Positions 15,049-60,527 are shown, numbered from the stretch's first letter. The stretch is DNA of 64,000 nucleotides from Vescimonas coprocola (GCA_963660615.1 CAVKYE010000004.1:11465-75464); one strand, 5' to 3'. The notes: generated from the sequence alone by a model not told the origin. A program made the numbers and translations.

Positions 15049-15297
15049 TTAAAAAACAAGCATAAATACAAACAACAAAATAACAAAAAAAACAATTACA
15101 TAAGGTATAAACATCATAACAAAATTTAAAATTTTATGTCTACTTAAAAAACTTTCAAATAAAATTCTAAAAACAATAACAATAAGTATCAAAAAAATTG
15201 AAACAATAATCATATCAAAAATACTACATAAATTATTAATATAATACATAACAACAAACCTTTCTGAAAATAAAAAAGGAATAAAAACATAAACCAC
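15049..15297 (-). CDS. small hydrophobic membrane protein (66-82 aa, about 3 TM)
   Basis: Track ORF starting GTG, sharing one nt with the noc stop (TAGTG). Alternative ATG at 15249 has GAAAGG upstream. No homology recognised. Confidence 0.4.
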   Translation of the reverse strand: MVYVFIPFLFSERFVVMYYINNLCSIFDMIIVSIFLILIVIVFRILFESFLSRHKILNFVMMFIPYVIVFFVILLFVFMLVF

Positions 15298-17168
15298 TAT
15301 TCCTTATTAATTTTAAAAGTAACTTGATAATTCTTATCTAAATCAATTTCATCAACATCAACATAATAACCTAATTTTTCAATCTCGTCCGCACAATTTC
15401 TTATTAAATTAATAACTTCTCTAAAAGAATTATTCGGAGTAGAAACAGCCTTAACATTATTCTCCATCATACTAGGTTGGCTTACAGGAGAACTTGCAGT
15501 TTCAATAATATCAGGTGTAGGAATATTATTAAGATTCTCTTCTGAAATCCTATAATCATCTAAGCCACTACCAATAGAAGAAACATTATTAACACTCTCT
15601 TGCATATTAGAAACAGTAGGTGTACTAGGACTAACCAAAGAATTGGCCTGCACTAAACTATCATTAACAGATGTAACCTCAGGAACAGATTGAGACATAC
15701 CGGAATTAACCGTGCTAAAAGAAGGCGTAACCAAACTAGGTGTCGGTCTAACATCAGAAGAAGATGAAACCAAACTAGGAGTGTTAGTCGCAGATGTAAC
15801 CTCTGGTATAGAAGATGAAACCTCCGGTATAGAACTTATCTCTTGATTATTTAAAGATTTTTGATTCACATAAGCAGAAGAATTACCACCCTCAGTATTT
15901 GCATTCGAACTAGAACCAATAGTATGATAAGCAGGATTAAAACCTTGATTAGAAACCTGACTTTGATTTATACCAGAAGTAACATTAGAGCCAAATCCAG
16001 AAGCCATATTATTTACCTGATTAGAACTAACTTGTCCTCCTACACTTTCTTGAGGTCTTGGCATTCCACCTAAAACATTATTATTAACAGTATTATTAGC
16101 ACCATTAGAATTGTTATCAGGTGTACTAGGTTTCAAATCAGCTGGTGTTTGATTAAAAATACTATCAAAACTAACCGAACCAGAATTAGTCGGTTTAACC
16201 TCAGAAGGCCTTTGTACCTCATTATTTCCATAAGGAATATTAACAAATTTATTATCATTATTAACAGGCGCTGGTGTTGGTGCTACATTACCGCTAGGAC
16301 TAGGCATAGAGGATCCTCTCATAAGTTCAGAAATATCATTAGGTTGCTTAGTCTCATTAATATCGTGAGCCTCCCTCATAATTTTATCAATATCCATAAA
16401 TCCTTTTCCCCTTTCTTCATTCATACTATTATCTTTAGTAAAACTATCCTTTTTAATTTGATTATCAAATAAACTTTCAACCACAGGCTTATCATTTAAA
16501 ACATTAACTTTAACAGGATGACTAATCGTCTTAACAGAAGCACCCACACCATCAGACGGGTTCTCAAGCAAATACTTCTTAATCTCATCATCAGTACGTT
16601 TAACCGTCAAACGCTCACTAATAATCCTTCCAAGCATCATAACCTGAGCATTCCTATTTCCAAGCCTAAGTAAACTTCTTGCATGCCTTTCAGAAATACG
16701 TCCATGCAAAAGCGCATCTTGAACTTGATCATCAAGATTTAAAAGCCTTATCTTATTAGCAATAGTAGACTGAGACTTACCAATCTTTTTCGCAAGTCCA
16801 TCTTGAGTAATATAGCCCATATCCAAAATACGCTTATAAGAAACAGCCTCCTCAATCGCCGTAAGCTCTTGTCTTTGAATATTTTCAAGAAGGGCAATTT
16901 CTTCACTATCCTTATCAGATAAATTTACAACAATAGCCGGAATAGTAGTCCTACTAGCAAGTTTACTAGCCTTAAAACGTCTTTCACCCGCAATAATTTC
17001 ATACTTATTATTAATAGGTCTTACAACAATAGGCTGAATAACACCATATTTATGAATAGACTCCGCAAGTTCCTGAAGCTTAACCTCATCAAAACGAATA
17101 CGCGGTTGAAATCTATTAGGTAAAATATCATTAATATTTAAAACCACTAATTGACCATTTTCGTACAT
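15297..17168 (-). CDS. noc: Noc-like ParB-family protein with long low-complexity insertion (623 aa)
   Basis: Trimmed to ATG at 17168 (GGGAGGGG 7 nt upstream). LPNRFQPR, IIAGERRFKAS, GKSQSTIANKIRLLNL and ISERHARSL resemble B. subtilis Noc rather than Spo0J. Position after rsmG. C-terminus REVINLIRNCADEIEKLGYYVDVDEIDLDKNYQVTFKI resembles the Noc C-terminus. Confidence 0.85.
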   Translation of the reverse strand: MYENGQLVVLNINDILPNRFQPRIRFDEVKLQELAESIHKYGVIQPIVVRPINNKYEIIAGERRFKASKLASRTTIPAIVVNLSDKDSEEIALLENIQRQELTAIEEAVSYKRILDMGYITQDGLAKKIGKSQSTIANKIRLLNLDDQVQDALLHGRISERHARSLLRLGNRNAQVMMLGRIISERLTVKRTDDEIKKYLLENPSDGVGASVKTISHPVKVNVLNDKPVVESLFDNQIKKDSFTKDNSMNEERGKGFMDIDKIMREAHDINETKQPNDISELMRGSSMPSPSGNVAPTPAPVNNDNKFVNIPYGNNEVQRPSEVKPTNSGSVSFDSIFNQTPADLKPSTPDNNSNGANNTVNNNVLGGMPRPQESVGGQVSSNQVNNMASGFGSNVTSGINQSQVSNQGFNPAYHTIGSSSNANTEGGNSSAYVNQKSLNNQEISSIPEVSSSIPEVTSATNTPSLVSSSSDVRPTPSLVTPSFSTVNSGMSQSVPEVTSVNDSLVQANSLVSPSTPTVSNMQESVNNVSSIGSGLDDYRISEENLNNIPTPDIIETASSPVSQPSMMENNVKAVSTPNNSFREVINLIRNCADEIEKLGYYVDVDEIDLDKNYQVTFKINKE

Positions 17169-21241: not shown

Positions 21242-21330
21242 ATACTGTCACCTCTCAAAAATAATTTTACTATGAGAAAAAAAAATAGTCAACAAAGTGA
21301 CCAAATTAATTATTGTGGAAAACAAAATAA

Positions 21331-23976: not shown

Positions 23977-24208
23977 ATTACACACTCCTCCCTTAAAATT
24001 TCATCTGCTTTTTCAATTATATAGATAAAACTAAGTTTTGTCAACATCTTTCACCATATTGTTATACATTTCCCCCATATTATAAACATATTTTCAAAAA
24101 ACAAAATAATGAACAAAACACCCACATTTAAACATATATATAAGTAAAAGCACCCCAAAAAAAGTTTTCCATATAACGTCAAAATTACACATTGTTTACG
24201 TATTTACG

Positions 24209-24404
24209 TTATCCACATAGTTTTCCACAGTAAAATACTTTTAGTTACAACATCAAACAAATTTTTTCAACACATGTGGAAATGTAAAACTTTATTCACA
24301 TTGTGGAAATAAATATTATCCACAAATATTGTGGAAATAAACAAAAAAAATAGAAAAATAAAAGAAAAAAGCCTGTGTATATCTTTTTTTTTCACTTTTC
24401 CACA
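24209..24404. promoter_or_regulatory. DnaA-box cluster upstream of dnaA (oriC left part / dnaA promoter region)
   Basis: TTATCCACA at 24209 and 24316; TTTTCCACA at 24221 and 24396; TTATTCACA at 24292; TGTGGAAAT (complement orientation) at 24275, 24302 and 24330. Confidence 0.85.
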
Positions 24405-24477: not shown

Positions 24478-25824
24478 ATGGACGTAGAAAATATCTGGAG
24501 TGTCTTTTTAGCCAAAATTGAAATGAAAGTAAAACCAGTACTATATCAAACGTGGTTTAAAGACACCAAACTAATAAAATTAACAAATGACGAAGCTCTC
24601 GTCGAAGTACCACTAGATGTACACAAAAAACACCTAAAAGAAAACTACAATGAAATAATAAAGGAAACATTCATGGAAGTAACAGGAACCATATATACAT
24701 TCGAATACGTTACAGAAAATGAAGTAGACGAAGAATTAACTGAATACAAGCCAGAAATAAAAGAAAACAACGAAGCAATATTTGAAAGTGGACTAGATAC
24801 AAAATACACATTTGATAATTTCATATCAGGTGAAAGTAACAAATTCGCCAAAGCCATTGGACTTGCCGTAGCTGAAAAACCAGGCAGTATGTACAATCCA
24901 CTATTTATCTATGGAAGTAGCGGACTTGGAAAAACCCATTTAATGCATGCAATAGGAAATTACATAACAGAAAACACAAACAAAAGAGTATTATATGTAA
25001 CTAGTGAAAAATTTGTCGATGATTTCCTAAGTTTATATAGAAAAAACGATAATAATTTCAAAGCTGTAGATAACTTCAAAAGAAAATATCGTAACATAGA
25101 CGTCCTAATGATAGACGATATACAATATCTAGAAATAGCCAGCAAAACCCAACAAGAATTTTTCAACACATTTAACGAACTTCACACCAATAACAAACAA
25201 ATAATAATATCATCAGATAGATCCCCAGATGACCTAAAAAAACTAGAAGAACGACTAAGAACAAGATTCAACTGGGGACTAACCATTGATATATTACCAC
25301 CAGACTTTGAATTAAGAATGGCCATATTAGATAAAAAAATAGAAGCACAGGGGATAAGTAGCTACGTTCCAGCAGAAGTAAAAGAATACATCGCCGGCAA
25401 CTGTAAAACTGATATAAGAAAACTAGAAGGCGCATTAACTAGAGTATTTGCTTACGCCACCATAATGAATGGGTCAGAAATAACCATAGACCTTGCCATA
25501 GAAGCACTAAAAGACTACATAGGAAAAAACATCATATCAAAAAATAAAATAGAAAGCGTAATCCAATTAGTCGCCAGTACATATAACATCACCCCAGAAG
25601 ACATAAAAAGTAAAAAAAGATTATCAAAAATATCCGTACCAAGACAAATTGGAATGTATATATGCAGAATACATCTAAAAGAATCACTACCAAAAATAGG
25701 AAGTGAATTTGGTGGAAAAGACCACACAACAGTAATGCACTCAGTAAATAAAATAAAAAGAGAACTTACAAAAGACAAAAAACTAGAAGAAGAAATAAAT
25801 AAAATAATAAGCAAATTAAAATAG
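24478..25824 (+). CDS. dnaA: chromosomal replication initiator protein DnaA
   Basis: 448 aa; GSSGLGKTHL Walker A; C-terminal GGKDHTTVMHS. Confidence 0.98.
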   Translation: MDVENIWSVFLAKIEMKVKPVLYQTWFKDTKLIKLTNDEALVEVPLDVHKKHLKENYNEIIKETFMEVTGTIYTFEYVTENEVDEELTEYKPEIKENNEAIFESGLDTKYTFDNFISGESNKFAKAIGLAVAEKPGSMYNPLFIYGSSGLGKTHLMHAIGNYITENTNKRVLYVTSEKFVDDFLSLYRKNDNNFKAVDNFKRKYRNIDVLMIDDIQYLEIASKTQQEFFNTFNELHTNNKQIIISSDRSPDDLKKLEERLRTRFNWGLTIDILPPDFELRMAILDKKIEAQGISSYVPAEVKEYIAGNCKTDIRKLEGALTRVFAYATIMNGSEITIDLAIEALKDYIGKNIISKNKIESVIQLVASTYNITPEDIKSKKRLSKISVPRQIGMYICRIHLKESLPKIGSEFGGKDHTTVMHSVNKIKRELTKDKKLEEEINKIISKLK

Positions 25825-25894: not shown

Positions 25895-25960
25895 ATTTCC
25901 ACTTTTCCACATTTTCCACACCAATAATAAAAATACATTTAATAAAATAAAAATAAAAGG
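25895..25960. promoter_or_regulatory. DnaA boxes plus AT-rich stretch between dnaA and dnaN (oriC right part, candidate unwinding region)
   Basis: ATTTCCACT 25895, TTTTCCACA 25903 and 25912 in tandem, followed by aataataaaaatacatttaataaaataaaaataaaa. A further TTTTCCACA lies at 27109..27117 just after dnaN. Confidence 0.7.
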
Positions 25961-25970
25961 AGAAAAATTT

Positions 25971-27092
25971 ATGAAAATAGAAATAAAACAAGACATATTA
26001 TTAGAACATTTAAACTATGTAATTAGAGGAATATCATCAAAAAATTTAAGACCAATTCTAAACTGCATAAAATTTGACTTAAAAGAAGAAGGTTTATACC
26101 TTATGAGTACAGATAATGAAATAGCCATCAAAACATTTATCGAAAAAAAAGACATCGAAAAAATAGATAACTATGGTGAAATAGTTGTATCAGGAAGATA
26201 TATATATGATATAGTAAGAAAACTACCAGATGAAATTATAAATATAGAAGAGGTTATAGATTCAAAAATATACATAACTACAAAAAACTCATCATTTAAC
26301 TTAAATTGCAGTAACCCCTCAGAATTTCCAAATCTAGAACTTGAATATAGACCAGATCCTATAATTTTAACCGAAAAAACATTTAAAACAATAGTAGGAC
26401 AAACATCATTTGCCACATCAGCCCAAGAATCAAGACCAGTACTAACAGGAATCAATTTCAAAATAAAAAACAATATAATGGAATGTACCGCAACAGATTC
26501 ATATAGATTAGCCATCAAAAAATTAGAACTAAATCAAAACCTTAGTGAAGAAGTAAATATAATTATCCCCAACAAAAATATATTAGAACTAGTCAAATTG
26601 ATGAATGATGATGAAGAACAAGTAGAAATGCATATATTTGGAAACAAAGTAATATTCAAGTTCAAAAGTATAAGCATGATGACAAGACTAATCAGTGGAA
26701 CCTATCCAGATACATCAAAATTAATACCAACAGAATTTGCTCTAACACTAAAAATAAATTTAATGGATTTCTTTAGTGCCATAGATAGAGCATCACTATT
26801 AACAAACGAAAGTGATAAAAACACAATAAAATTAGAAACCAAAGGAAATACAGTAATAATTTCCTCAAATATTCCTGAAATAGGAAATGTAGAAGAAAAA
26901 ATCACTGTGGAAAAGAGTAACGAAGATAACATAAGAATTGCATTTAATTCAAAATTTATGTTAGACTCAATAAGAGTACTAGAATCAGAAGAAATAGAAT
27001 TATTATTCAATGGGGAATTCAAACCAATAATAATAAAAAATCCAGAAAGTGACAGTTTAACACAATTAATCTTACCAATTAGGACCTATTAA
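25971..27092 (+). CDS. dnaN: DNA polymerase III beta sliding clamp
   Basis: 373 aa; position after dnaA; C-terminal LILPIRTY. Confidence 0.96.
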   Translation: MKIEIKQDILLEHLNYVIRGISSKNLRPILNCIKFDLKEEGLYLMSTDNEIAIKTFIEKKDIEKIDNYGEIVVSGRYIYDIVRKLPDEIINIEEVIDSKIYITTKNSSFNLNCSNPSEFPNLELEYRPDPIILTEKTFKTIVGQTSFATSAQESRPVLTGINFKIKNNIMECTATDSYRLAIKKLELNQNLSEEVNIIIPNKNILELVKLMNDDEEQVEMHIFGNKVIFKFKSISMMTRLISGTYPDTSKLIPTEFALTLKINLMDFFSAIDRASLLTNESDKNTIKLETKGNTVIISSNIPEIGNVEEKITVEKSNEDNIRIAFNSKFMLDSIRVLESEEIELLFNGEFKPIIIKNPESDSLTQLILPIRTY

Positions 27093-27205
27093 AGGTCTTT
27101 TTTTTCACTTTTCCACACACATATGACAAAATTTGATAAAATTTGACAAAAGAAAAGAGTATAAGAGATGTGTCAGCAAAAACTGACAAGAAAGGGGGAT
27201 TTGGT

Positions 27206-27661
27206 ATGATCGATAAAGATATATACGAAATCAATAAAAATACATGTGCTATAATAGCCACAGAAAATAACAAAGCAAAGGTAATAGAAACAGAAAACAC
27301 AATAGTTTTAGAAACCAAAACACTTGATATAATGAAACGAAGTTGTGAATACTATGGTAGTACATTAGAAGGTAGAGTAAAGGGAAGTAAATCCCAATTA
27401 GGTATGAGATATAAACTTCCAGTAATTGTTGAAGAAAGTAAAGAAATAATCTTTTTTCCAACAACCTCGCTCTCTCAAAAAGACTGCAGTTGGATAAATT
27501 TAAAAGCCATAAAATCATATGAAAAAAAAGAATTTGGTGTTTCTGTAACCTTTGAAGGGAATTACGAACAAATAATTCCTATATCTTATGATTCATTTGA
27601 AAATCAGGTATTTAGAGCCACAAAGCTATTATTAATTCTTCAACATCGAAAAAATAATTAA
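27206..27661 (+). CDS. comK: competence transcription factor ComK family
   Basis: Trimmed to ATG at 27206 (AAGGGGGA upstream). RSCEYYGSTLEGRVKGS, IIFFPTTSLSQKDCSWIN and IPISYDSFENQVFRA align with B. subtilis ComK (RSCRFFGSSYAGRKAGT, IFLFPTLSSTRPQCGWIS, LPISYNSFENQVYRT; recalled from memory). Confidence 0.88.
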   Translation: MIDKDIYEINKNTCAIIATENNKAKVIETENTIVLETKTLDIMKRSCEYYGSTLEGRVKGSKSQLGMRYKLPVIVEESKEIIFFPTTSLSQKDCSWINLKAIKSYEKKEFGVSVTFEGNYEQIIPISYDSFENQVFRATKLLLILQHRKNN

Positions 27662-27666
27662 AAAAA

Positions 27667-27703
27667 GCAAAAAAATAAGTTAATAACAACTTATTTTTGC
27701 TTT
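27667..27703 (+). terminator. rho-independent terminator after comK
   Basis: gcaaaaaaataagtt / aacttatttttgc imperfect hairpin followed by ttt. Confidence 0.6.
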
Positions 27704-27718
27704 ATAAAGCCCATTTTG

Positions 27719-27727
27719 TGGTATAAT
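27719..27727 (+). promoter_or_regulatory. extended -10 (TGgTATAAT) upstream of recF
   Basis: ttttgtggtataatgg, 76 nt upstream of the recF ATG. Confidence 0.5.
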
Positions 27728-27802
27728 GGTATAGAGGTATAGGAGTATTACCAAAACCATTTTTGTTAAAATAAGGGGGTTAAAAATGCATAAAAACAAA
27801 AA

Positions 27803-28915
27803 ATGATAATCAAAAATATAGAATTAAAAAATTTTAGAAACTACGAAAGTTTAAAATTAAGCCTAAACCCTAAAATAAACATTATATATGGACAAAATGG
27901 TGCAGGCAAAACAAACATATTAGAAAGTATATATGTACTATCATTAGGAAAATCGCATCGTTCCTTTCTCGATGATACCCTTATCAAAAGTGGACAAGAA
28001 AAAGCACTAATAAAAGGTAAAATTCAAAACATAATACCTTATAATCTAGAAATAGAGATAACAAAAACAAAAAAGCAACTAAAAAAAGATGATAAAATAG
28101 TAACAAAATTAGGTGAATACATTGAAAAAATGAATATTATAATCTTCCACACAGATGATTTAGAATTAATAAAATCATCCCCAAGTGTCAGAAGAAAATA
28201 TCTTGATTTAGAGTTAAGCCAAATATCAAAAAATTATTATAATACTCTAAGTGACTATAATAAATTATTAAAATTAAGAAATGATTACTTAAAGCAAATG
28301 AGTGAAGGGAAAAAAATCGATAAAAACTATTTTGATATTTTAACAAGCTATCTTATAGAAAAAAGTGTATTTATATATCAAATGCGCAATAAATATATAG
28401 ATAAATTAAATAAAATTTGTCCAGCAATATTCAAAGATTTAACACAAAAGGAAAACTTTAAAATTGAATATTTACCATCTATAAGAATCGAAGAAAAAAC
28501 TGTGGAAAAAATAAGAGAAAAAATAAAAGAAAATTTCATTAATAATCTCCAAAAAGAAATACAAAACCATGCAACATTATATGGTCCGCATCGAGACGAT
28601 TTTTTATTCACATTAAATGGAAATAACTTAAAAAATTTTGGCTCACAAGGGCAACAACGAATAGCCGTTATAACCCTTAAACTATCAGAAATCAGCTTAT
28701 TTGAAGATTATAAAAAAACAAGTCCAATAATACTCTTAGATGATGTATTTAGTGAATTAGATGCTGAAAAGAAAAATAATTTATTATCCTATATCGATAA
28801 AGATATGCAGGTTATAATAACATCAACTGATTTAAACAATATTGATAAAAAAATAACAGCAAAGGCCAAATTAATTGAAATATCAAAAGGTCAAATTATA
28901 AAAGAGGTGAGATAA
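27803..28915 (+). CDS. recF: DNA replication and repair protein RecF
   Basis: 370 aa; [12 protein letters not shown] Walker A; [10 protein letters not shown] Walker B. Confidence 0.96.
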
Positions 28916-30840
28916 TGGAAGAAAACAAAGAACATTATAATGAATCAGATATTCAGGTATTAGAAGGCCTAGAAGCCGTAAGAAAAAGACCTGGAATGTA
29001 CATAGGAACAACCGATGTAAAAGGTCTTCATCATTTAGTATGGGAAATAGTTGATAATGCTATAGATGAAGCTCTAGCCGGCTACTGTAACAATATCGAA
29101 ATCATCATTAATAAAGATAACTCAATAACCGTAAAAGATAACGGTAGGGGAATCCCAACTGGAGTACATCCAAAAACCGGATTATCAACCGTAGAAACAG
29201 TATATACAGTTCTTCATGCCGGTGGAAAATTTGGTGGCGGTGGTTACAAAGTCTCAGGAGGACTTCATGGAGTTGGTGCTTCAGTAGTAAATGCCTTATC
29301 AACAAGAGTAACTGTAACTGTATATAAAGATGGTAAAATCTACGAAGCAAAATTCCAAAACGGTGGAAAAATAGTTCAAAAGCTTACCGTAATTGGTGAC
29401 TGTGAAGAAGAAAGAACTGGAACAACCGTTACATTTAAACCAGATCCTGATATTTTTGACACAGATATCTATGATTATCAAACACTAAAAACAAGGACCA
29501 GAGAACTAGCTTTCCTAAATAAAGGACTTAGCTTAACTTTAAGAGACGATAGAGATGATGAAGATACAACTGGTGAAACATTCCATTATGAAGGTGGAAT
29601 AAGTGAATATGTAAAATATTTAAATAAGAACAAAACACCAATTCAAAGTGAAATAATCCATCTAGAAGGTGAAGAACAAGACGTAATAATTGAAGTAGCC
29701 ATCCAATATAATACAGGTTATACCGACAACATTTATTCATTTGTAAACAACATCAATACCCATGATGGAGGAACTCATGAAGAAGGAGTTAGAAGAGCCC
29801 TAACCAGAATATTAAATAGTTATGCTAGAAAAAATAACATCTTAAAAGAAAAAGATGCCTCATTTAGTGGAGAAGACGTAAAAGAAGGACTAACAATGAT
29901 AGTCTCATGTAAACATCCAAACCCACAATTTGAAGGCCAAACCAAAGGAAGATTAGGGAACTCAGAGGTTAGAAAAATAGCCGATAATGTCTTTGCTGAA
30001 GGTTTTGAAAGATATCTTTTAGAGCACCCAGATGAAGCAAAAATAATTATCGAAAAAAACATGACAGCCGCAAGAGCAAGAGTTGCTGCCAAAAAAGCCA
30101 GAGAATTAACCAGAAGAAAAAGTGATTTAGATGTCATCAACTTTGGTGGAAAACTAGTAGATTGTAAAGACAAAGATCCTGCAAAATGCGAAATATTCCT
30201 AGTCGAGGGAGATTCGGCTGGAGGTTCTGCCATAAAAGGTAGAAATTCCATGACACAAGCAATCCTGCCACTAAGAGGTAAGATTTTAAATGTAGAAAAA
30301 GCAAGAATGGATAGAGCATTAAGTAATGAAGAAATAAGAACAATAATAACAGCCTTTGGTACCGGAATAGGTGAAGACTTTGACTTAAAAAAATTAAGAT
30401 ACCATAAAATAGTAATCATGACTGATGCCGATGTTGATGGTTCACATATTAGAGTTTTATTATTAACGCTATTTTACCGTTTCTTTAGACCAATAGTAGA
30501 AGCAGGACACGTATATGCCGCACAGCCTCCACTATTTTGTATAAAACATGGAAAAACTATAAAATATGTTCTAAATGAAGAAGAAAGAGATTCATATTTA
30601 GCATCATTAAATTCAAACACAAAATACGATATTATGCGTATGAAAGGTTTAGGTGAAATGGATGCCGAAGAGCTAAATGAAACAACAATGGATATAAATA
30701 GCAGAATACTAAGAAAAATAACAGTAAATGATATAATCGCTGCTGACGAAGCATTCACAAAATTAATGGGTGAAGAAGTAGAACCAAGAAGAAAATTTAT
30801 CGAAGATAACGCAACATACGCGGAAAATCTAGACATATAG
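28915..30840 (+). CDS. gyrB: DNA gyrase subunit B
   Basis: 641 aa; [32 protein letters not shown]. Confidence 0.98.
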
Positions 30841-30850
30841 GAGGTAAAAA

Positions 30851-33295
30851 ATGGATCATAGTAGAGATAGATTAGAAGAAAACAACATAGTAAATGAAAT
30901 AGAAACTTCATTTCTAGAATACTCAATGAGTGTTATCATTTCAAGAGCCTTACCAGATCTAAGAGATGGACTAAAACCAGTACATAGAAGAATATTATAT
31001 TCAATGTATGAATCAGGGTATACACCAGATAAACCTCATAAAAAAAGTGCTAGAATAGTCGGAGACGTAATGGGAAAATATCACCCTCATGGGGATTCAA
31101 GTATTTATGAAGCCATGGTTAGAATGGCACAAGATTTTAGTTATAGAAACATGCTAGTAGATGGCCACGGAAACTTCGGAAACATTGAAGGTTACGGAGC
31201 CGCCGCAATGCGTTATACAGAATCAAGATTATCAAAAATAGCCTTAGAATTATTAAGAGATATCAATAAAGACACTGTTGATTTCACACCAAACTTTGAT
31301 GAATCAGAAAAAGAGCCCTCAATTTTACCATCAAGATTTCCAAATATATTAGTAAATGGAACCATGGGAATAGCCGTAGGAATGGCTACAAATATTCCCC
31401 CACACAACTTAGGAGAAGTAATAGAGGGATGCATTGCCTATATTGATAATCCTGAAATAGATACATCAGGACTAATGCAATACATAAAAGGCCCAGACTT
31501 TCCAACTGGAGCCATAATCCTTGGTAATAGTGGAATCAAAAAAGCCTACGAAACCGGAAAAGGAACAATAACCATAAGAAGTAGAGCTAGAATAGAAGAG
31601 GCAAATGGTAAACAATATATAATCATAGATGAAGTACCATATGGCGTAAACACCTCAGAATTAAAAAATAAAGTAGCTGATCTAGTACATTCAAAAGTAA
31701 TAGAAGGAATTTCAGATTACCACACCGACTTAAAAGATGGAATTAAAATCACCATAACCTTAAAAAAAGATGCCAATGCCCAAATAGTATTAAACAATCT
31801 TTATAAACACACCCAATTCCAAACAAACTATGGAATAACACTCTTAATGTTAGATAATGGTGTACCCAAAACTCTAGGATTAAAAGACATAATTTCAAAA
31901 TACATCGATTATCAAAAAGAAATAATAATCAGAAGAACAAAATATGATTTAAGAAAAGCAGAAGCTAGAGTTCACATATTAGAAGGACTCAAAATAGCAC
32001 TAGACAACATAGATGAAATAATCAAATTAATTAAAGCCGCCAAAGGCGACGATGAGGCCAGAAAACAACTAATGGAAAGATTCCATTTAACAGAAATACA
32101 AGCTAATGCCATTCTAGAAATGAAATTAAGAAGATTAACGGGCTTAGAAAGAGCAAAAATCGAAGCCGAATTAGCCGACTTATTAGAGAAAATAAAATAT
32201 TATAAAGAAATACTAGCATCGGAGCAAAAAGTATTAAATATAATCAAAGAAGAATTATTAGAAATAAAAAATAAATACAGTGATGATAGACGAACAGAAA
32301 TAGATATGACAGCAATAGATTATATAGAAGATGAATCACTAATACCTGTGGAAAACATCGTAATAACTTTAACAAATAATGGTTATATAAAAAGAACAAC
32401 AAGCGAAACATATAAAACGCAAAATAGAGGCGGAGTAGGAATTAAAGGAATGACTACAAACGAAGATGATTTTGTGGAAAAACTAATATCGATGACAACA
32501 CATGATTATATAATGTTCTTCACCAACAAAGGAAAAGTATATAGATTAAAAGGATATGAAATCCCACAATACAGCAGACAATCAAAGGGATTGCCAATAA
32601 TAAATCTTTTACCATTAGAAAAAACAGAACACATAAAAGCCATGTTAAAAGTAGAAAAAGAAGAGAAAAACAACTATATTGTATTTTGTACACAAAACGG
32701 TTTAGTAAAAAGAACATCATTATCAGAATTCGAAAACATAAGATCAAACGGTAAAATTGCAATAACATTAAAAGAAACAGATGAATTAATATCAGTAATG
32801 AAAACAACTGGGGAAAACGAAGTAATTATAGCCGCATCAAATGGTAGAATGATAAGATTTGTGGAAAACGAAATAAGAATAATGGGAAGAACAGCATCCG
32901 GAGTAAAAGGAATAGACCTTGGACAAGATGGAATTTGCGTAGAATGTGAAATAGCAGAGCCAGAACAACAAATATTAGTAGTAACAGAAAATGGTTATGG
33001 AAAAAGAACAAATATTGAAGAATATAGAATGACTCATAGAGGAAGCAAAGGAGTCAAAGCACTAAACATAACCGAGAAAAATGGAAATATAGTTGCATTT
33101 AAATTAGTAAATGGTGACGAAGACTTAATGATAATAACAAATAGTGGAATAATAATAAGACTATCAGTAGACCAAGTATCAACAACCGGTAGAGTAGCCC
33201 AAGGCGTAAGATTAATTCATTTAAAAAATGAACAACAAGTAAGTAATGTAGCACTATTAGCTAAAGAAGAAACTATAGAAACCGAAGAACACTAA
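30851..33295 (+). CDS. gyrA: DNA gyrase subunit A
   Basis: 814 aa; [24 protein letters not shown] active-site Tyr region. Confidence 0.98.
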
Positions 33296-33302
33296 AAAAT
33301 TA

Positions 33303-33341
33303 AATAAGATATCGATTTAAAACATCATATCTTATTTTTTT
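33303..33341 (+). terminator. rho-independent terminator of gyrA
   Basis: aataagatat ... atatcttatt 10-bp stem followed by a T-run. Confidence 0.7.
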
Positions 33342-33464
33342 GTGTAAAAAAAAATAAGGAACAAAAAACAAAATAGTGGATAATTAAACATAATAAAAAA
33401 TAATATTGTGGAAAACAGGGTTAAAAGTGCGAAAAAGACAAGAAAAAGTCAAAATACAAAAAAA

Positions 33465-34432
33465 TGTTTCACGTGAAACATGCAATTAACATTAATAAGA
33501 AGGAATAAAAAAAATTAAATAAAACATTCAAGAACAATAAAGTAAGCATGAATTCAAAATACAAAATATAAGTATACTTTTGCAAATGAAACATTATATA
33601 CATAATTACTAACCATTGTGTAAAAAATACATATGTTTCACGTGAAACATATAAAAAATTGAATTATTATACTGAAAAAGATTTGTTAAAATAATAGAGT
33701 TGTATATTAATTACATAATATACAAGGTATAATATGTAAAAAAACGAACATTTCATATGGAAACACTCTAAAATTAAATTGAATAAGGTCTAATACAATA
33801 CAAAATGATGTTTCACATGAAACATCTACAAAGTATTTTTTATATAATACAAAAATGTATTATATAAGTAATATTTTAATTGATGATTTTTTAATAATCG
33901 ACGTTTCACATGAAACATTGAAATTATAAAAAAACTAAAATAAAGATAAAAATAGTTAAAAGAAAAAGAATTTAGATATTATTAAACATTTTTAGTATAA
34001 ATAATATAAGTATATTTATGAATTTTACGTTCAAAAGCATTATATATATTTAATGTAGTAATTTTTAATTATTATTATTACTATTATAAAAAATTATGTT
34101 TCACGTGAAACTATGGTTATGTTAAAAGATAAATATTATTTGTTATTTCGATAGAAAAGTGACTAAAAAAATCAAAGAACTGATTAAAATTATATTTTTT
34201 ATGAATAATATACATTTGTTTAGTGAAAAAATTCTAGTCCAATCATATAAAATTGAATAAAAGCTAGTATTTATGGGTTAATAGTATATGTTCCACGTGA
34301 AACATATAGAATAAATAAATTAAAAATAATCGAATAATGTATTGGCAAAAATAAGAAAGTAGATAAAAATTGTGAATAAAATGATTAAATATATATAAAA
34401 AATACACTTACAAATATGTTTCACGCGAAACT
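33465..34432. repeat. array of 7 parS-like 16-bp palindromes (plus 1 degenerate copy) in non-coding DNA
   Basis: TGTTTCACGTGAAACA at 33465 and 33634; TGTTTCACATGAAACA 33809; CGTTTCACATGAAACA 33902; TGTTTCACGTGAAACT 34097; TGTTCCACGTGAAACA 34289; TGTTTCACGCGAAACT 34417; degenerate CATTTCATATGGAAACA 33749. B. subtilis parS consensus is TGTTNCACGTGAAACA. Confidence 0.85.
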
Positions 34433-34484
34433 ATGAAAAATACACATAATATATATAAAAAAATCAAATAACAGGCATTATAGA

Positions 34485-34513
34485 TTGCATTTTTAGGTAA
34501 AATGATGTAATAT
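34485..34513 (+). promoter_or_regulatory. sigma-A-type promoter of the SRP RNA gene
   Basis: TTGCAT - 17 nt - TAATAT, 6 nt before the G at 34520. Confidence 0.6.
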
Positions 34514-34519
34514 GAAAAA

Positions 34520-34592
34520 GGTACAACATTTATATCTGAACCAGGTCAGAATCGGAAGATAGCAGCCTTAAGGATCCCTAAGTGTGTGTACC
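34520..34592 (+). ncRNA. ffs: small (about 73 nt) signal recognition particle RNA
   Basis: ACCAGGUCAGAAUCGGAAGAUAGCAGCC matches the SRP domain IV motif (GGAA tetraloop closed by AUC/GAU, conserved AGCAGCC/CCAGGUCAG). Terminal helix GGUACA...UGUACC. Synteny with tadA-dnaX-ybaB-recR, as scr in B. subtilis. Confidence 0.8.
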
Positions 34593-34610
34593 TTTTAATT
34601 AGGTGATAAT

Positions 34611-35015
34611 GTGGAAAAATATATGCAATTAGCCATTTTAGAAGCAAAAAAATGTAAAAAAACAGACGACGTCCCAGTTGGAGCAGTTATTGTTGAAAAT
34701 GGAAAAATTATAGCCAAAGCTCATAATACAAAAGAAAAAACAAAATCAGCAATAGCACATGCCGAAATAAATGCTGTGGAAAAAGCATGCAAAAAAAAGA
34801 AAAATTGGCACTTAAATGAATGTGAAATGTATGTCACACTAGAACCATGCCCAATGTGCCTAGGAGCCATAAAAGAAGCAAGAATAAAAAAAGTGACATA
34901 TGCAGTCTCAAGAGACAAAAAAAACACCCTTAACAATCCAAAAATGATCCTAGGAACCCAGACCAAAGAATCAAAAACAATACTCAAAAGCTTTTTCGAA
35001 AACAAGAGGAAATAA
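34611..35015 (+). CDS. tadA: tRNA-specific adenosine deaminase
   Basis: 134 aa; HAEINAV and PCPMCLGAI zinc motifs. GTG start after AGGTGA (alternative ATG at 34623). Confidence 0.93.
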   Translation: MEKYMQLAILEAKKCKKTDDVPVGAVIVENGKIIAKAHNTKEKTKSAIAHAEINAVEKACKKKKNWHLNECEMYVTLEPCPMCLGAIKEARIKKVTYAVSRDKKNTLNNPKMILGTQTKESKTILKSFFENKRK

Positions 35016-35092
35016 TAAAAGATATTTCCTTTTGTTGTGGAAAAAACCAAACAAAAATGATATAATTATATATAGATTCAGAAGGTGATATT

Positions 35093-36829
35093 GTGTATCA
35101 AGCATTATATAGAAAATATAGGCCAAAAACCCTAACCGAGATAGGTGGTCAAGATACAATTGTAAAAATAATAAATAATTCAATAACAAACAATAGAATA
35201 AACCATGCATACCTATTTGCAGGACCAAGAGGAACCGGAAAAACCAGCATAGCAAAAATATTTGCAAAAATGGTAAACTGTGAAAATCTAAAAAATGGAA
35301 TCCCTTGCAATAAATGTGTGAGTTGTACACAAACAAACAATAGTGACATAATAGAAATAGATGCAGCCTCAAATAACGGAGTAGATGAAATCAGAGAATT
35401 GAGAAATAAAGTAAACCTCGTACCATCATACGGTAAATATAAAGTATATATAATTGATGAAGTACACATGCTTACTACTGGTGCCTTTAACGCACTATTA
35501 AAAACCCTTGAAGAACCACCAGCACATATAATATTTATTCTAGCAACCACAGATCCACATAAAATACCCGAAACAATATTATCAAGGTGCCAAAGACTAG
35601 ATTTCAAAAAAATTAGCAATAAAAGCATAGTAGAAAGACTAAAAGAAATATCATCCAAAGAAAACATCAAAATAACCGATGAAGCCCTAAATGAAATAGC
35701 AAGACTTTCTGATGGTGGAATGCGAGATTCAATAGGATTATTAGATGAAGCCACCGCATATAGTGATAATGAAATAACAATAAAAGATATACATGCCATA
35801 AATGGTACCCTAACCCCACAAGACTTAGCAGAATTTTTAGAACTGATTGTGGATAAAAAAATAGAAAAAATCCTTCAAAAAATAGACGAATATAGTGAAA
35901 GTGGAAAAAATTTTGTAAAATTAACCGAAGAAATCATAAACTTTATCCGAAACATCTTACTATATCAAAAAGCCGAGGGATATTTTAAATCATTACATAA
36001 AGATACAAAATTATATGAAAAAATAAGCTCAAAAATAGCTGATTTTCAATTAATGGAATATATTGACCGACTAAACCAAGGATTATTAGAAATGAAAACA
36101 ACAAATAATCCCAAATTAGTTCTTGAACTAACTCTAATAAAAATATTATCCAATAAAAATCAAAATATTGTGGAAAAAGAGCCAGAAACTAACACTTATC
36201 AAAAAAGCGTAACAACTACACAAAACCAAAACTCCCACATCACACAAACAGAAATACAAAAAAATGAAAATACTGTGGAAAAAGACCAAATAATTACCCA
36301 ACAAAACAAAAGCTCAATTCAAAATATAAATAAAGTTCCAATTACAAACGAAAAAGTAGTTTTCACCCCAAAAAATCAAAAAAAATTAGAAGAACTAAAA
36401 CAACTTAGAATAAATAATACCCTAGCAAAATTTACAAAAAAATTAATTCCCATAACAAAACAAAAACTATTAGAATTAAATAACTACTTATTAGATCCAG
36501 ATATAAGTACATTTGCTTCGATGCTAATGGATGGAACATTAAAAGCTGCCAGTGAAGAAAATTTAATATTTGTCTACAGCAAAGAAAGAACCGCAAAACG
36601 GTTCAATGAAAACATAATAAATCTAGAAACTACCATTCAAAAAATATTAAACAAAAAATATAAAATTATTGCCACAGATATAAACGAGTGGCAACAAATA
36701 AAAGATGATTTTAATAGCCGTAAAAAAATCTATGAATACAAAGAAGAAAATATAAATATAGAAGAAATATTTACGAAAAACGAGAATAATGAATTTAGCT
36801 CATATAGTGAGTTAATAGAATATAATTAA
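35093..36829 (+). CDS. dnaX: DNA polymerase III subunit gamma/tau
   Basis: 578 aa; GPRGTGKTS Walker A, IIDEVHML, SRCQ; GTG start after AAGGTGA. Confidence 0.96.
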   Translation: MYQALYRKYRPKTLTEIGGQDTIVKIINNSITNNRINHAYLFAGPRGTGKTSIAKIFAKMVNCENLKNGIPCNKCVSCTQTNNSDIIEIDAASNNGVDEIRELRNKVNLVPSYGKYKVYIIDEVHMLTTGAFNALLKTLEEPPAHIIFILATTDPHKIPETILSRCQRLDFKKISNKSIVERLKEISSKENIKITDEALNEIARLSDGGMRDSIGLLDEATAYSDNEITIKDIHAINGTLTPQDLAEFLELIVDKKIEKILQKIDEYSESGKNFVKLTEEIINFIRNILLYQKAEGYFKSLHKDTKLYEKISSKIADFQLMEYIDRLNQGLLEMKTTNNPKLVLELTLIKILSNKNQNIVEKEPETNTYQKSVTTTQNQNSHITQTEIQKNENTVEKDQIITQQNKSSIQNINKVPITNEKVVFTPKNQKKLEELKQLRINNTLAKFTKKLIPITKQKLLELNNYLLDPDISTFASMLMDGTLKAASEENLIFVYSKERTAKRFNENIINLETTIQKILNKKYKIIATDINEWQQIKDDFNSRKKIYEYKEENINIEEIFTKNENNEFSSYSELIEYN

Positions 36830-54652: not shown

Positions 54653-55438
54653 ATGGGAAAAATAATAGCATTAGTAAATCAAAAAGGTGGAGTAGGAAAA
54701 ACAACAACAAGCATCAATCTATCAGCATCCCTAGGAACCCTAGGCAAAAAAGTATTGCTAATAGACCTAGACCCACAAGGTAACAGTACCACAGGACTAG
54801 GAATCGAAAAAGGCGACATAAAAAGTAGTATCTATGACCTTTTAACCGACAAAGCCGAACTAAAAGATGTAATAAAGAAAACAAAATTTAGAAACCTTTA
54901 CATCATCCCCGCAACAATAAGCCTAGCCGGAGCAGACATCGAACTAATGGAAAGAAGTAGAATGGATCCAACATTCACAAAAAACAGTCAACTAAAAAAA
55001 CATCTAGAACTCGCAAGCCCAATGTTTGACTACATCCTAATAGACTGCCCACCATCACTAGGCATTCTAACCACCAACGCCCTAACCGCTGCTAACTCAG
55101 TAATAATTCCCGTACAGTGTGAATTTTTCGCTCTAGAAGGAATAATGCAACTATTAAACTCAATCATGTTAGCCCAAAAAACCCTAAATCCATCATTAGA
55201 CATCGAAGGCGTATTACTAACAATGTTAGATAATAGAACAAACCTTGGATTAGAAGTAGTACAAGACATAAAAAGCTATTTCAAAGAAAGAGTATATGAT
55301 ACCATAATTCCAAGACTAGTAAGACTATCAGAAGCCCCAAGTCATGGAAAACCAATAATTGCTTATGACCCAAAAAGTAGAGGAGCTGAAGCATACTTAA
55401 ACTTAGCCAAAGAGGTGATGAATAGAAATGGAAAATAA
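54653..55438 (+). CDS. parA: chromosome partitioning ATPase ParA/Soj
   Basis: 261 aa; NQKGGVGKTTT deviant Walker A. Confidence 0.96.
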   Translation: MGKIIALVNQKGGVGKTTTSINLSASLGTLGKKVLLIDLDPQGNSTTGLGIEKGDIKSSIYDLLTDKAELKDVIKKTKFRNLYIIPATISLAGADIELMERSRMDPTFTKNSQLKKHLELASPMFDYILIDCPPSLGILTTNALTAANSVIIPVQCEFFALEGIMQLLNSIMLAQKTLNPSLDIEGVLLTMLDNRTNLGLEVVQDIKSYFKERVYDTIIPRLVRLSEAPSHGKPIIAYDPKSRGAEAYLNLAKEVMNRNGK

Positions 55439-56306
55439 AAAAAGAGCCCTAGGTAAAGGCCTAGAACAATTATTTGATTTAGAAAACTTAAACGTCGACA
55501 ACGTAAGTAATTTTGAAAAACAAATATACGAAGAAACAAAAGGCGAAGAAATAATCGAACTTAATGTAGATGAAATAAGACCAAACCCATATCAACCAAG
55601 ACACATATTCAACGAAGAAGCCCTAAAGGATCTAGCAAATTCCATCAAAGAAAATGGCGTATTTCAACCAATAATCGTCAAAAAAAGCATAAAAGGATAT
55701 GAACTAATAGCCGGAGAAAGAAGACTAAGAGCAAGTAAAATGGCTGGAAAAACAACAATACCTGCCATAATTCGCCAATTATCAGATGATAAAATGGCCG
55801 AAATAGCCCTTCTAGAAAACCTTCAAAGAGAAAACCTAAACGCCCTAGAAGAAGCCATGGCCTATAAAAGCCTAATAGATAAATTAGGCATAACCCAAGA
55901 AGAACTATCAAAAAAAGTCAGCAAAAGCCGTAGTCATATCACCAACATGATAGGATTACTTAGACTACCAAACGAAGTACAAGAAATGATAGCCGACAAA
56001 AAAATAACCATGGGTCATGCAAGAGCCCTAAGCAAACTAGAAAATGAAGAAGAAATAATAAATATGGCTAAAGACATAACAGAAAACAGCCTACCAGTCC
56101 GTGAAATAGAAAAAGCTTCAGAAAATTCAGCAAAAAAAATAGTCCAACACCGCATCAAACCAACAAACGAATATGCTTATGTTGAAGACTTAATAAGAGA
56201 AAAACTAGACACCAAAATAAAAATAAAAAATAATAAAATAGAAATATCCTTCACCAACACAGCCGATTTAAACCGTATATTAGAAATATTAAATATAAAG
56301 GAATGA
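55428..56306 (+). CDS. parB: chromosome partitioning protein ParB/Spo0J
   Basis: 292 aa; RPNPYQPR, LIAGERRLRAS, SRSHITNMIGLLRLP, GHARAL. Confidence 0.96.
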   Translation: MENKKRALGKGLEQLFDLENLNVDNVSNFEKQIYEETKGEEIIELNVDEIRPNPYQPRHIFNEEALKDLANSIKENGVFQPIIVKKSIKGYELIAGERRLRASKMAGKTTIPAIIRQLSDDKMAEIALLENLQRENLNALEEAMAYKSLIDKLGITQEELSKKVSKSRSHITNMIGLLRLPNEVQEMIADKKITMGHARALSKLENEEEIINMAKDITENSLPVREIEKASENSAKKIVQHRIKPTNEYAYVEDLIREKLDTKIKIKNNKIEISFTNTADLNRILEILNIKE

Positions 56307-60020: not shown

Positions 60021-60527
60021 ATGTATTATATTAATTGTTTTTTTATATACTCATTCCTAGGATTTATATTAGAAACCCTAATCACATTTATATTAGGATA
60101 TAACTACAATAGTGGATTTTTAAAAGGCCCCATAACCCCATTATATGGCATAGGAGCCATACTAGTTATAATAATATCAGATAAATGCTTCAAAAATCTC
60201 CACTTGCCAAGATGGATAGAAACAATAATAGTCTTCATCATAATAACAATCATCTTAAGCTTCCTAGAATACATAGGAGGAACACTAATAGAAATAATTT
60301 TCCACAAAGTATTTTGGGACTATAGCAATTACAAATTCAACATAGGCAAATACATTTGCCTAGAAATGAGTGCAGTATGGGGAATATTAAGCATAATATT
60401 TATATACCTAATAAAACCAATATTAGATAACACCATAATCTTAATACCAAAAAAAATAACATATATATTTTGTATAATCTTTATTCTAGATATAATATAT
60501 ACACTCATTACCGCAAATCCAAACTAA
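60021..60527 (+). CDS. polytopic membrane protein (putative ABC-transporter type IV / PF06541-like)
   Basis: Trimmed to ATG at 60021 (AAGGTGA upstream); FIYSFLGFILETL N-terminus typical of that family. Core-like A/C-ending codon usage. Confidence 0.65.
   Translation: MYYINCFFIYSFLGFILETLITFILGYNYNSGFLKGPITPLYGIGAILVIIISDKCFKNLHLPRWIETIIVFIIITIILSFLEYIGGTLIEIIFHKVFWDYSNYKFNIGKYICLEMSAVWGILSIIFIYLIKPILDNTIILIPKKITYIFCIIFILDIIYTLITANPN

Follow-up and report, generated by a model that had tools for sequence, protein, structure and literature searches.

Whether titration of the initiator DnaA by its binding sites on the chromosome (DnaA boxes) is a real, selected means of replication control has been debated for decades, and direct evidence for it comes, to our knowledge, almost only from Escherichia coli. 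Here, we describe an array of twelve putative DnaA boxes, eleven copies of the 9-mer TGTGGAAAA and one of TGTGGATAA, which runs from dnaN to dnaX directly right of the replication origin (oriC) in a 64,000-nucleotide stretch of the Vescimonas coprocola assembly (contig C4:11465-75464 of G000; hereafter the window). The assembly comprises 1.26 Mb in 33 contigs at 30% G+C.

In E. coli, DnaA boxes accumulate near oriC, a distribution argued to serve titration (Olivi et al. 2025, PMC12371093). There, as in Vescimonas, single boxes are enriched toward oriC when oriC itself is excluded and permuted control words are not, and early-copied sites would raise titration capacity right after initiation. 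The Vescimonas boxes differ from the E. coli distribution in several respects. They are packed much more densely near the origin, with 12-17 perfect ones per 10-15 kb and roughly one quarter of all TGTGGAAAA copies within 1% of the chromosome, and the dense part is one-sided and sharply ended. Furthermore, their placement in essential genes runs counter to codon bias and entailed amino-acid changes, and they belong to a spore-forming member of the gut Bacilli that has a small genome and lacks the SeqA/Dam/Hda system. The E. coli datA locus likewise places strong DnaA boxes outside oriC and lowers initiation potential. However, datA spans ~1 kb, contains five boxes plus an IHF site and promotes DnaA-ATP hydrolysis; no such compact unit was seen here, nor was an IHF site, for which no search was made.

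In Bacillus subtilis, deletion of six DnaA-box clusters leads to early initiation, and the rescue by one re-inserted cluster improves with proximity to oriC, as a gene-dosage effect; cluster deletion is also synergistic with loss of spo0J (PMC3245932). These clusters (Ishikawa/Okumura; PMC3245932, PMC4447404) and the Vescimonas array have in common a firmicute DnaA, a two-part oriC around dnaA, and additional boxes beyond oriC, most of them on the origin side. The dosage dependence of the cluster effect and its genetic link to Soj and Spo0J would be further points of likeness. Unlike the clusters, which are compact (4-12 boxes per 300 bp) and lie between genes, often at promoters, the array is neither compact nor, for the most part, intergenic. 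The logic is known from the E. coli distribution and the B. subtilis clusters; what is new here is an array that is dispersed, intragenic, codon-enforced, parS-flanking and genus-wide.

The initial annotation of this DNA had listed all twelve boxes on the plus strand, and an exact search of the window returned every one of its coordinates; its gene names dnaN, recF, gyrB, gyrA, tadA and dnaX also hold (NCBIfam). The array, together with related words nearby, is as follows.

21314..21322, plus strand: TGTGGAAAA in the mnmE/HD-domain gene spacer, the window's only copy left of oriC (exact search)
26906..26914, plus strand: box in dnaN, ACT GTG GAA AAG (exact search, codon alignment)
27109..27117, minus strand: reverse-oriented box in the dnaN-comK spacer (exact search)
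28501..28509, plus strand: lineage-specific box in recF (exact search, codon alignment)
29221..30153, plus strand: three candidate one-mismatch copies GGTGGAAAA in gyrB (29221, 29362 and 30145), read Gly-Gly-Lys
32347..32481, plus strand: pair of boxes in gyrA (32347 and 32473), 126 bp apart
32860..32868, plus strand: lineage-specific box in gyrA (exact search, codon alignment)
33375..33415, plus strand: one-mismatch copy AGTGGATAA (33375) and TGTGGAAAA (33407) in the spacer right before the parS array
34610..34618, plus strand: box providing the GTG start codon of tadA
34775..34783, plus strand: internal box in tadA (exact search, codon alignment)
35036..35044, plus strand: box in the tadA-dnaX spacer
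35848..35856, plus strand: consensus box TGTGGATAA in dnaX, in the frame GTG GAT AAA
36169..36282, plus strand: boxes at 36169 and 36274 in the dnaX variable linker, the last of the array

Eight TGTGGAAAA copies and the TGTGGATAA copy are intragenic, one copy forms the tadA start codon, and the others lie in spacers. Successive spacings are 1595, 3846, 126, 387, 547, 1203, 165, 261, 812, 321 and 105 bp, and a further one-mismatch copy, AGTGGAAAA, is located at 35900. Minus-strand copies of TGTGGAAAA occur at 24221, 24396, 25903, 25912 and 27109. The exact search found no TGTGGAAAA in the window from 36283 to 60297, matching the empty stretch at 36.3-60 kb first noted by eye, and the copy at 21314 is indeed the only one on the left side within the window. 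The next copies to the right, both on the minus strand, are at 60298 and 61725. These two are 1427 bp apart and belong to a local duplication, since the 15-bp flanks on either side of them are identical.

The number of copies far exceeds chance. The window holds 19 copies of TGTGGAAAA against a mean of 0.63 in dinucleotide shuffles, and the whole genome holds 52, 20 of them on the window's contig. Accordingly, the genome-wide count is not uniform (11 copies in 9.4 kb versus ~1 per 37 kb in the rest of the genome), and the excess claimed by the initial annotation stands, even though the base composition sampled for its estimate (A.40, C.24, G.15, T.21) was off; the window is in fact A.43, C.18, G.13, T.26. 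In an open comparison of k-mers between dnaN-dnaX and the remaining genome, GTGGAAAA (15 copies, p ~1e-18) and TGTGGAAAA (11 copies, p ~1e-16) are the most locally enriched words, followed by fragments of parS. Because an open comparison places the word first, its excess is no artefact of having been chosen beforehand. Shuffles, the genome-wide count and the codon resampling described below together rule out chance or composition as the cause.

Several features identify the word as a probable DnaA box. Firstly, its complement TTTTCCACA matches the relaxed DnaA-box consensus TTWTNCACA, and the word at 35848 is a perfect consensus box. Secondly, four exact copies of the word, along with variants, occupy the two spacers that flank dnaA:

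24165..24404: left half of oriC, upstream of dnaA, with ~10 boxes (perfect or one mismatch) in both orientations
25896..25965, plus strand: right half of oriC in the dnaA-dnaN spacer, with three head-to-tail boxes AATTTCCAC, TTTTCCACA and TTTTCCACA

In the left half, the consensus TTATCCACA is found at 24209 and 24316, TTTTCCACA at 24221 and 24396, and TGTGGAAAT at 24275, 24302 and 24330. In the right half, the three boxes are followed by an A+T-rich stretch that is likely the unwinding element. The origin is of the two-part firmicute type around dnaA. Finally, TGTGGAAAA is the commonest oriC box in many of the 30 genera of the family that were sampled, with up to seven copies, so that what the initial annotation saw in the origin clusters of this genome holds more widely. 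Since the same 9-mer is the main oriC box both here and across the family, the array copies read as DnaA boxes, and we infer that all twelve are putative DnaA-binding sites of the TTTTCCACA/TTATCCACA type.

Codon choice within the array genes indicates that the motif itself is selected. The eight wholly intragenic TGTGGAAAA copies take the frame x-GTG-GAA-AAn and the ninth supplies the tadA GTG start, as first described, and GTG is as rare as was claimed. In codon usage derived from ~1100 long open reading frames called in the genome, its share of valine codons is 9.2% overall and 2.4% for the gene class containing the array genes, one of two gene classes whose synonymous composition is opposite. 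Nine of the 13 GTG valine codons in dnaN to dnaX fall inside a box, and dnaA, gyrB, ybaB, recR, mfd and dnaC contain no GTG valine at all. With the seven proteins fixed and synonymous codons redrawn in 1000-2000 draws, 0.38 sense copies were expected under genome-wide usage and 0.07 under local gene-class usage, versus 8 observed; the highest count in any resample was 3. Likewise, V-E-[K/N] tripeptides spell the motif at 8 of 11 sites in dnaN-dnaX and at 11 of 198 elsewhere. The array breaks off abruptly where dnaX ends: none of the seven V-E-K sites at 37-57 kb uses GTG, versus 8/11 inside the array.

Some boxes arose through changes in the encoded protein. The residues at the recF box are TVEK here and DKET, KNDN, EKEF, IKES or NEDD in relatives; those at the gyrA box at 32860 are FVEN here and FNEN, FDEN and similar in relatives; and those at the tadA box at 34775 are AVEK here and AIEK, AITK or AIKK in relatives. 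Amino-acid replacements thus created boxes in recF, gyrA and tadA. Relatives have different residues at these positions, or encode the valine with a different codon, which rules out a protein-level cause. It is the DNA motif itself on which selection acts, a finding strengthened by the strand skew discussed below, because GTG is written against a very strong local bias. A site apparently belonging to the initiator has been forced into essential genes genus-wide, in the face of a 40-fold codon bias and with amino-acid changes as the price, and a non-coding function can in this way shape the sequence of gyrase and clamp-loader genes.

Comparison with relatives revealed both shared and newly gained sites. 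Eighty loci were gathered via GyrB, and their hosts are uncultured gut Bacilli near Erysipelotrichaceae. The closest relative, locus L055 (GyrB identity 87%), lies on the 1.52-Mb chromosome-scale single-contig assembly G001 and has 13 plus-strand copies from dnaN to dnaX. In the codon alignment, five sites are common to L055 and the present genome (dnaN column 312; gyrA 505 and 547; dnaX 364 and 402), including both dnaX linker boxes (36169 and 36274), and seven gained sites of L055 are different from those here. The dnaN box is found at the same codon position in L055, L008, G073 and G082, and the 126-bp gyrA pair in L055, G073, G100 and G030. No exact box occurs in gyrB here, and two occur in the sister species.

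Further species of the genus were scored by pattern coordinates, and the figures for G073, G100 and G082 hold among the matches listed. Within 10-15 kb downstream of dnaA, sense copies number 14-17 in G073, 11 in G100 and 7 in G082, and the array of G001 has 13-17; three elements recur across species, namely the box in dnaN, a gyrB pair spaced by 243 bp and a gyrA pair spaced by 126 bp. The array is present genus-wide (7-17 copies in four other species), with site turnover. G030, from a different genus, has six in-frame GTG boxes in recF, gyrB and gyrA, partly at the same positions. In the more distant loci L001, L004, L008 and L002, gene order is conserved and so, for the most part, is the parS array, with 0-2 copies of the box in the dnaN-dnaX stretch. 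Among the 30 family genera sampled, strong spill-over of the oriC box into genes is seen only in this genus.

The initial annotation had tied its proposal to conservation at orthologous positions, which is found in part: five sites are shared with L055, whereas those in recF, gyrA (32860) and tadA are specific to this genome. Its central claim, that the motif itself is under selection, is borne out by codon resampling, residue replacements, independent gains in the sister species and presence throughout the genus. Because sites are gained and lost while their number is kept, selection appears to act on site density in the domain rather than on particular positions. The turnover of sites around a maintained 10-kb origin-side number is a readable record of natural selection.

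The common orientation of the boxes had also been taken as a possible polar architectural signal, an idea that is not supported. The synonymous opportunity for the motif is ~16x greater in the sense than in the antisense direction (0.379 versus 0.024 expected copies), because only x-GTG-GAA-AAn spells the box with common residues; coding constraint therefore explains the shared orientation and frame. Spacer copies occur in both orientations, as seen for the minus-strand copy at 27109 and for three reverse copies within the parS array of L055. This 16:1 codon opportunity and the two-way spacer copies rule out a polar signal as the cause of the common orientation, and outside the origin cluster G001 has 42 copies of TGTGGAAAA, the level of the reversed control word (39). 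FtsK-orienting polar sequences (KOPS), SpoIIIE recognition sequences (SRS) and Chi are over-represented chromosome-wide and switch strand at ori and dif. TGTGGAAAA does not behave in this manner: it forms a local cluster plus an origin-side gradient with mixed strand use on the chromosome arms, and a KOPS/SRS- or Chi-like word is ruled out.

Two explanations that draw on orientation need to be weighed here. The first is that the array does not serve DnaA but gives a polar cue to some other machinery, as a guide for a translocase, a hotspot of recombination or a one-sided fork barrier connected with the strand skew discussed below, or else is a motif acting at the RNA level. The single orientation of the intragenic copies, the position of the array on one side of oriC and a one-strand skew that does not flip at oriC would all suit such a role. 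We nevertheless consider it highly improbable, as the same 9-mer fills both oriC halves in both orientations, spacer copies point both ways, and the count outside the origin region equals that of the reversed control word, unlike KOPS or Chi. In addition, G030 has its array on the same side with a constant skew of opposite sign, dif lies opposite oriC, and inversions are origin-symmetric. The second is DnaA-dependent tuning, in which the boxes would act as orientation-dependent roadblocks to RNA polymerase and couple the expression of replisome and gyrase genes to initiator level. DnaA is a known transcription factor (PMC4447404), and the boxes do lie in replication genes in one orientation relative to transcription. 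This too is very unlikely: gyrB has boxes in the sister species but not here, and there is therefore no fixed regulatory target; tadA and spacers carry boxes too; codon opportunity already accounts for the orientation; and the two-arm gradient described next would be left unexplained.

Beyond the array, TGTGGAAAA is distributed along the chromosome in a gradient that falls away from the origin. Counts leave out 20 kb on either side of the origin. In G001, 36 copies lie at 20-400 kb from the origin and 7 beyond, a near fraction of 0.84 that ranks first among 8250 9-mers of similar count (mean 0.51, sd 0.08), and TGTGGATAA shows 20 near versus 6 beyond. None of the controls in the same chromosome shows a gradient, be they the synonymous words TGTAGAAAA and TGTTGAAAA, permuted words or words with one mismatch. 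In G073, the other single-contig genome of the genus, ~32 copies lie near and 6 beyond among the matches listed. When the contigs of the present genome were placed by synteny to G001, 23 copies fell near and 10 beyond, with 53% near expected. Both arms contribute. The origin-side gradient (~400 kb, both arms), a weaker enrichment than that of the array, is real and has the form of a titration-type distribution.

Could the field promote initiation instead? As a reservoir or loading platform, it would keep local DnaA high and, with recruited DnaD and DnaB, aid the firing of oriC. The field adjoins oriC and is built of strong oriC-type boxes, and DnaA-bound regions of B. subtilis reportedly recruit DnaD and DnaB. 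Such a role is distinctly unlikely in our judgement, since a 400-kb gradient on two arms would be unnecessary for it and the precedents for extra boxes are negative regulators (the B. subtilis clusters, PMC3245932; datA and titration in E. coli, PMC12371093).

We favor initiator titration, in which the array acts as an origin-side DnaA sink, and give this interpretation about an even chance. It is the best reading of the DnaA-box cluster outside oriC that the initial annotation proposed, and the two-arm gradient fits it. The twelve boxes and the two-part oriC make up a bounded field, in which strong initiator sites span ~10 kb immediately to the right of the origin; its boxes would be bound by domain IV of DnaA. 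This field would be copied seconds after initiation, so that the local number of sites would double at once. The new sites would then absorb free DnaA, lowering it below the level at which oriC fires until growth refills the pool. The genome encodes Soj and Spo0J, and YabA gave zero matches at or above the Pfam cut-off in five genomes (this genome, its sister and three other genera of the family); therefore, the sink could carry much of the negative control of initiation.

Several observations weigh against titration by the array. Its boxes are 105-3846 bp apart and mostly intragenic, unlike the compact bound clusters of B. subtilis, so that the likeness to those clusters drawn by the initial annotation is partial. 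Isolated B. subtilis boxes bind DnaA only at micromolar levels in vitro, and in vivo DnaA is seen only on the eight strongest, compact clusters (PMC4447404). Early copying alone does not predict the sharp end at dnaX or the crowding of boxes around parS, which hint at a local domain function. Replication in one direction only, as the skew might suggest, would make the array the last region to be copied. Finally, YabA falls below the cut-off family-wide, and its absence therefore fails to explain an array found only in this genus and partly in G030; with three of the five genomes searched coming from other genera, absence of YabA is ruled out as a genus-specific cause.

The crowding concerns a parS array, located between gyrA and tadA, which is listed here with the neighboring RNA gene and the partition genes of the window.

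33465..34432: array of seven parS sites (0-2 mismatches to TGTTTCACGTGAAACA), with no others like them in the window
34510..34607, plus strand: small signal recognition particle (SRP) RNA gene (RF00169, 61.8 bits)
54653..55438, plus strand: ParA (soj type), ~30 kb right of oriC
55428..56306, plus strand: ParB (spo0J type), ~30 kb right of oriC
15297..17168, minus strand: Noc-like ParB paralogue of 623 aa with ParB_N and HTH_ParB, left of oriC

The parS array fills a 1.2-kb non-coding gap from gyrA to the SRP RNA gene. Unlike in B. subtilis, the ParA and ParB genes are not on the rpmH side. In relatives, parS sites after gyrA number nine (perfect) in L055, eight in L001, at least three in L004 and two in L008. 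Ten of the 12 boxes lie within 2.4 kb of the seven-site array, and in L055 each of three reverse boxes lies ~15 bp before a parS copy. The crowding can in part be explained by opportunity: change is tolerated in the C-terminal part of gyrA, in the linker of dnaX and in the spacers, and gyrB is highly constrained.

A related arrangement has been described in Caulobacter crescentus, where, as summarized in a review, DnaA occupies boxes within parS and makes segregation possible (Mera 2014, reviewed in PMC6399470). By that account, initiator boxes lie beside or within a parS region a few kb from the origin, as they do here; the Caulobacter boxes, however, are few and confined to one spacer region, whereas in Vescimonas a multi-gene array flanks a seven-copy parS. 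The boxes may by analogy owe their position to the parS array and form a DnaA depot tied to the centromere, in which Soj and Spo0J would control the DnaA kept inside the ParB-parS domain, or this DnaA would aid origin release or segregation. Besides the Caulobacter precedent and the proximity of the boxes to parS both here and in L055, the end of the array 2.4 kb past parS, the ParA/ParB genes 20 kb away and the synergy between box-cluster loss and spo0J loss in B. subtilis (PMC3245932) are consistent with a depot. We regard it as unlikely, because L001, L004 and L008 keep the post-gyrA parS array and have no box array, the crowding can be explained by change-tolerant sequence, and the two-arm gradient is unrelated to parS.

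A further peculiarity of the genus is a strand skew that flips neither at the origin nor at dif. At fourfold-degenerate sites, the same physical strand is G+T-rich on both sides of oriC and on both sides of dif, so that synonymous codon choice is almost reversed between the genes of the two arms. On the coding strand, the values are as follows.

Window: left of oriC, GC3 +0.68 and AT3 -0.67; right of oriC, GC3 -0.71 and AT3 +0.53
L055: left of oriC, GC3 +0.48 and AT3 -0.27; right of oriC, GC3 -0.66 and AT3 +0.09

The other loci tested are mirror-symmetric about oriC, L002 excepted. The latter (CALVVN010000024.1) has a weaker asymmetry of opposite polarity, with AT3 +0.42 on the left and -0.17 on the right. 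On the plus strand of G001, G exceeds C at fourfold sites in all four arm/gene-strand classes. The contigs of the present genome show the same skew, including C2, which carries a dif-like site. The skew is strong only in this genus among the 30 genera sampled. The G001 genes diverge at dnaA and converge at ~0.67 Mb, where the dif-like site is also found.

G001:C1:665155-665182, plus strand: single dif-like site TAATCCGATAATATATATTATGTTAACT, at the convergence of gene orientation, opposite oriC
C2:78398, minus strand: dif-like site of the present genome, with 3 differences

Gene order between the present genome and G001 is broken into blocks of 10-40 kb, and several junctions (e.g., those of C15, C9 and C23) join near-equidistant segments of opposite arms, that is, origin-symmetric inversions. 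Gene orientation, the dif position, these inversions and the two-arm box gradient all look like two-way replication, conflicting with the skew. At neutral sites, the skew resembles that of forks running one way round, with the array on the side that looks 'copied backwards'. It is conceivable, if a long shot, that array and skew are two faces of an unusual replication mode, in which an array bound by DnaA (and perhaps by ParB) delays the rightward fork and makes replication lopsided. The side on which the array lies is not consistently tied to the sign of the skew: in G030, the array is on the same side and the sign is opposite, though the left flank of G030 is rearranged. In a milder form of this idea, a sink in essential genes may be the main brake on initiation in small Bacilli without YabA.

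The genes surrounding the array, in order along the window, are given below.

24478..25824, plus strand: dnaA (TIGR00362, 510 bits)
25971..27092, plus strand: dnaN (NCBIfam)
27143..27661, between dnaN and recF: ComK-family gene (Pfam PF06338, E 2e-38)
27803..28915, plus strand: recF (NCBIfam)
28915..30840, plus strand: gyrB (NCBIfam)
30851..33295, plus strand: gyrA (NCBIfam)
34611..35015, plus strand: tadA (NCBIfam)
35093..36829, plus strand: dnaX (NCBIfam)

Downstream of dnaX follow ybaB and then recR. The ComK-family gene occupies the same dnaN-recF slot in every relative examined. A scan of the window's contig for compact DnaA-box clusters found oriC as the sole cluster. Outside the window, a compact cluster of the B. 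subtilis type is located downstream of ftsH (C5:37424-37539), with an inverted pair of TGTGGATAA and TTATCCACA and three near-boxes in 115 bp.

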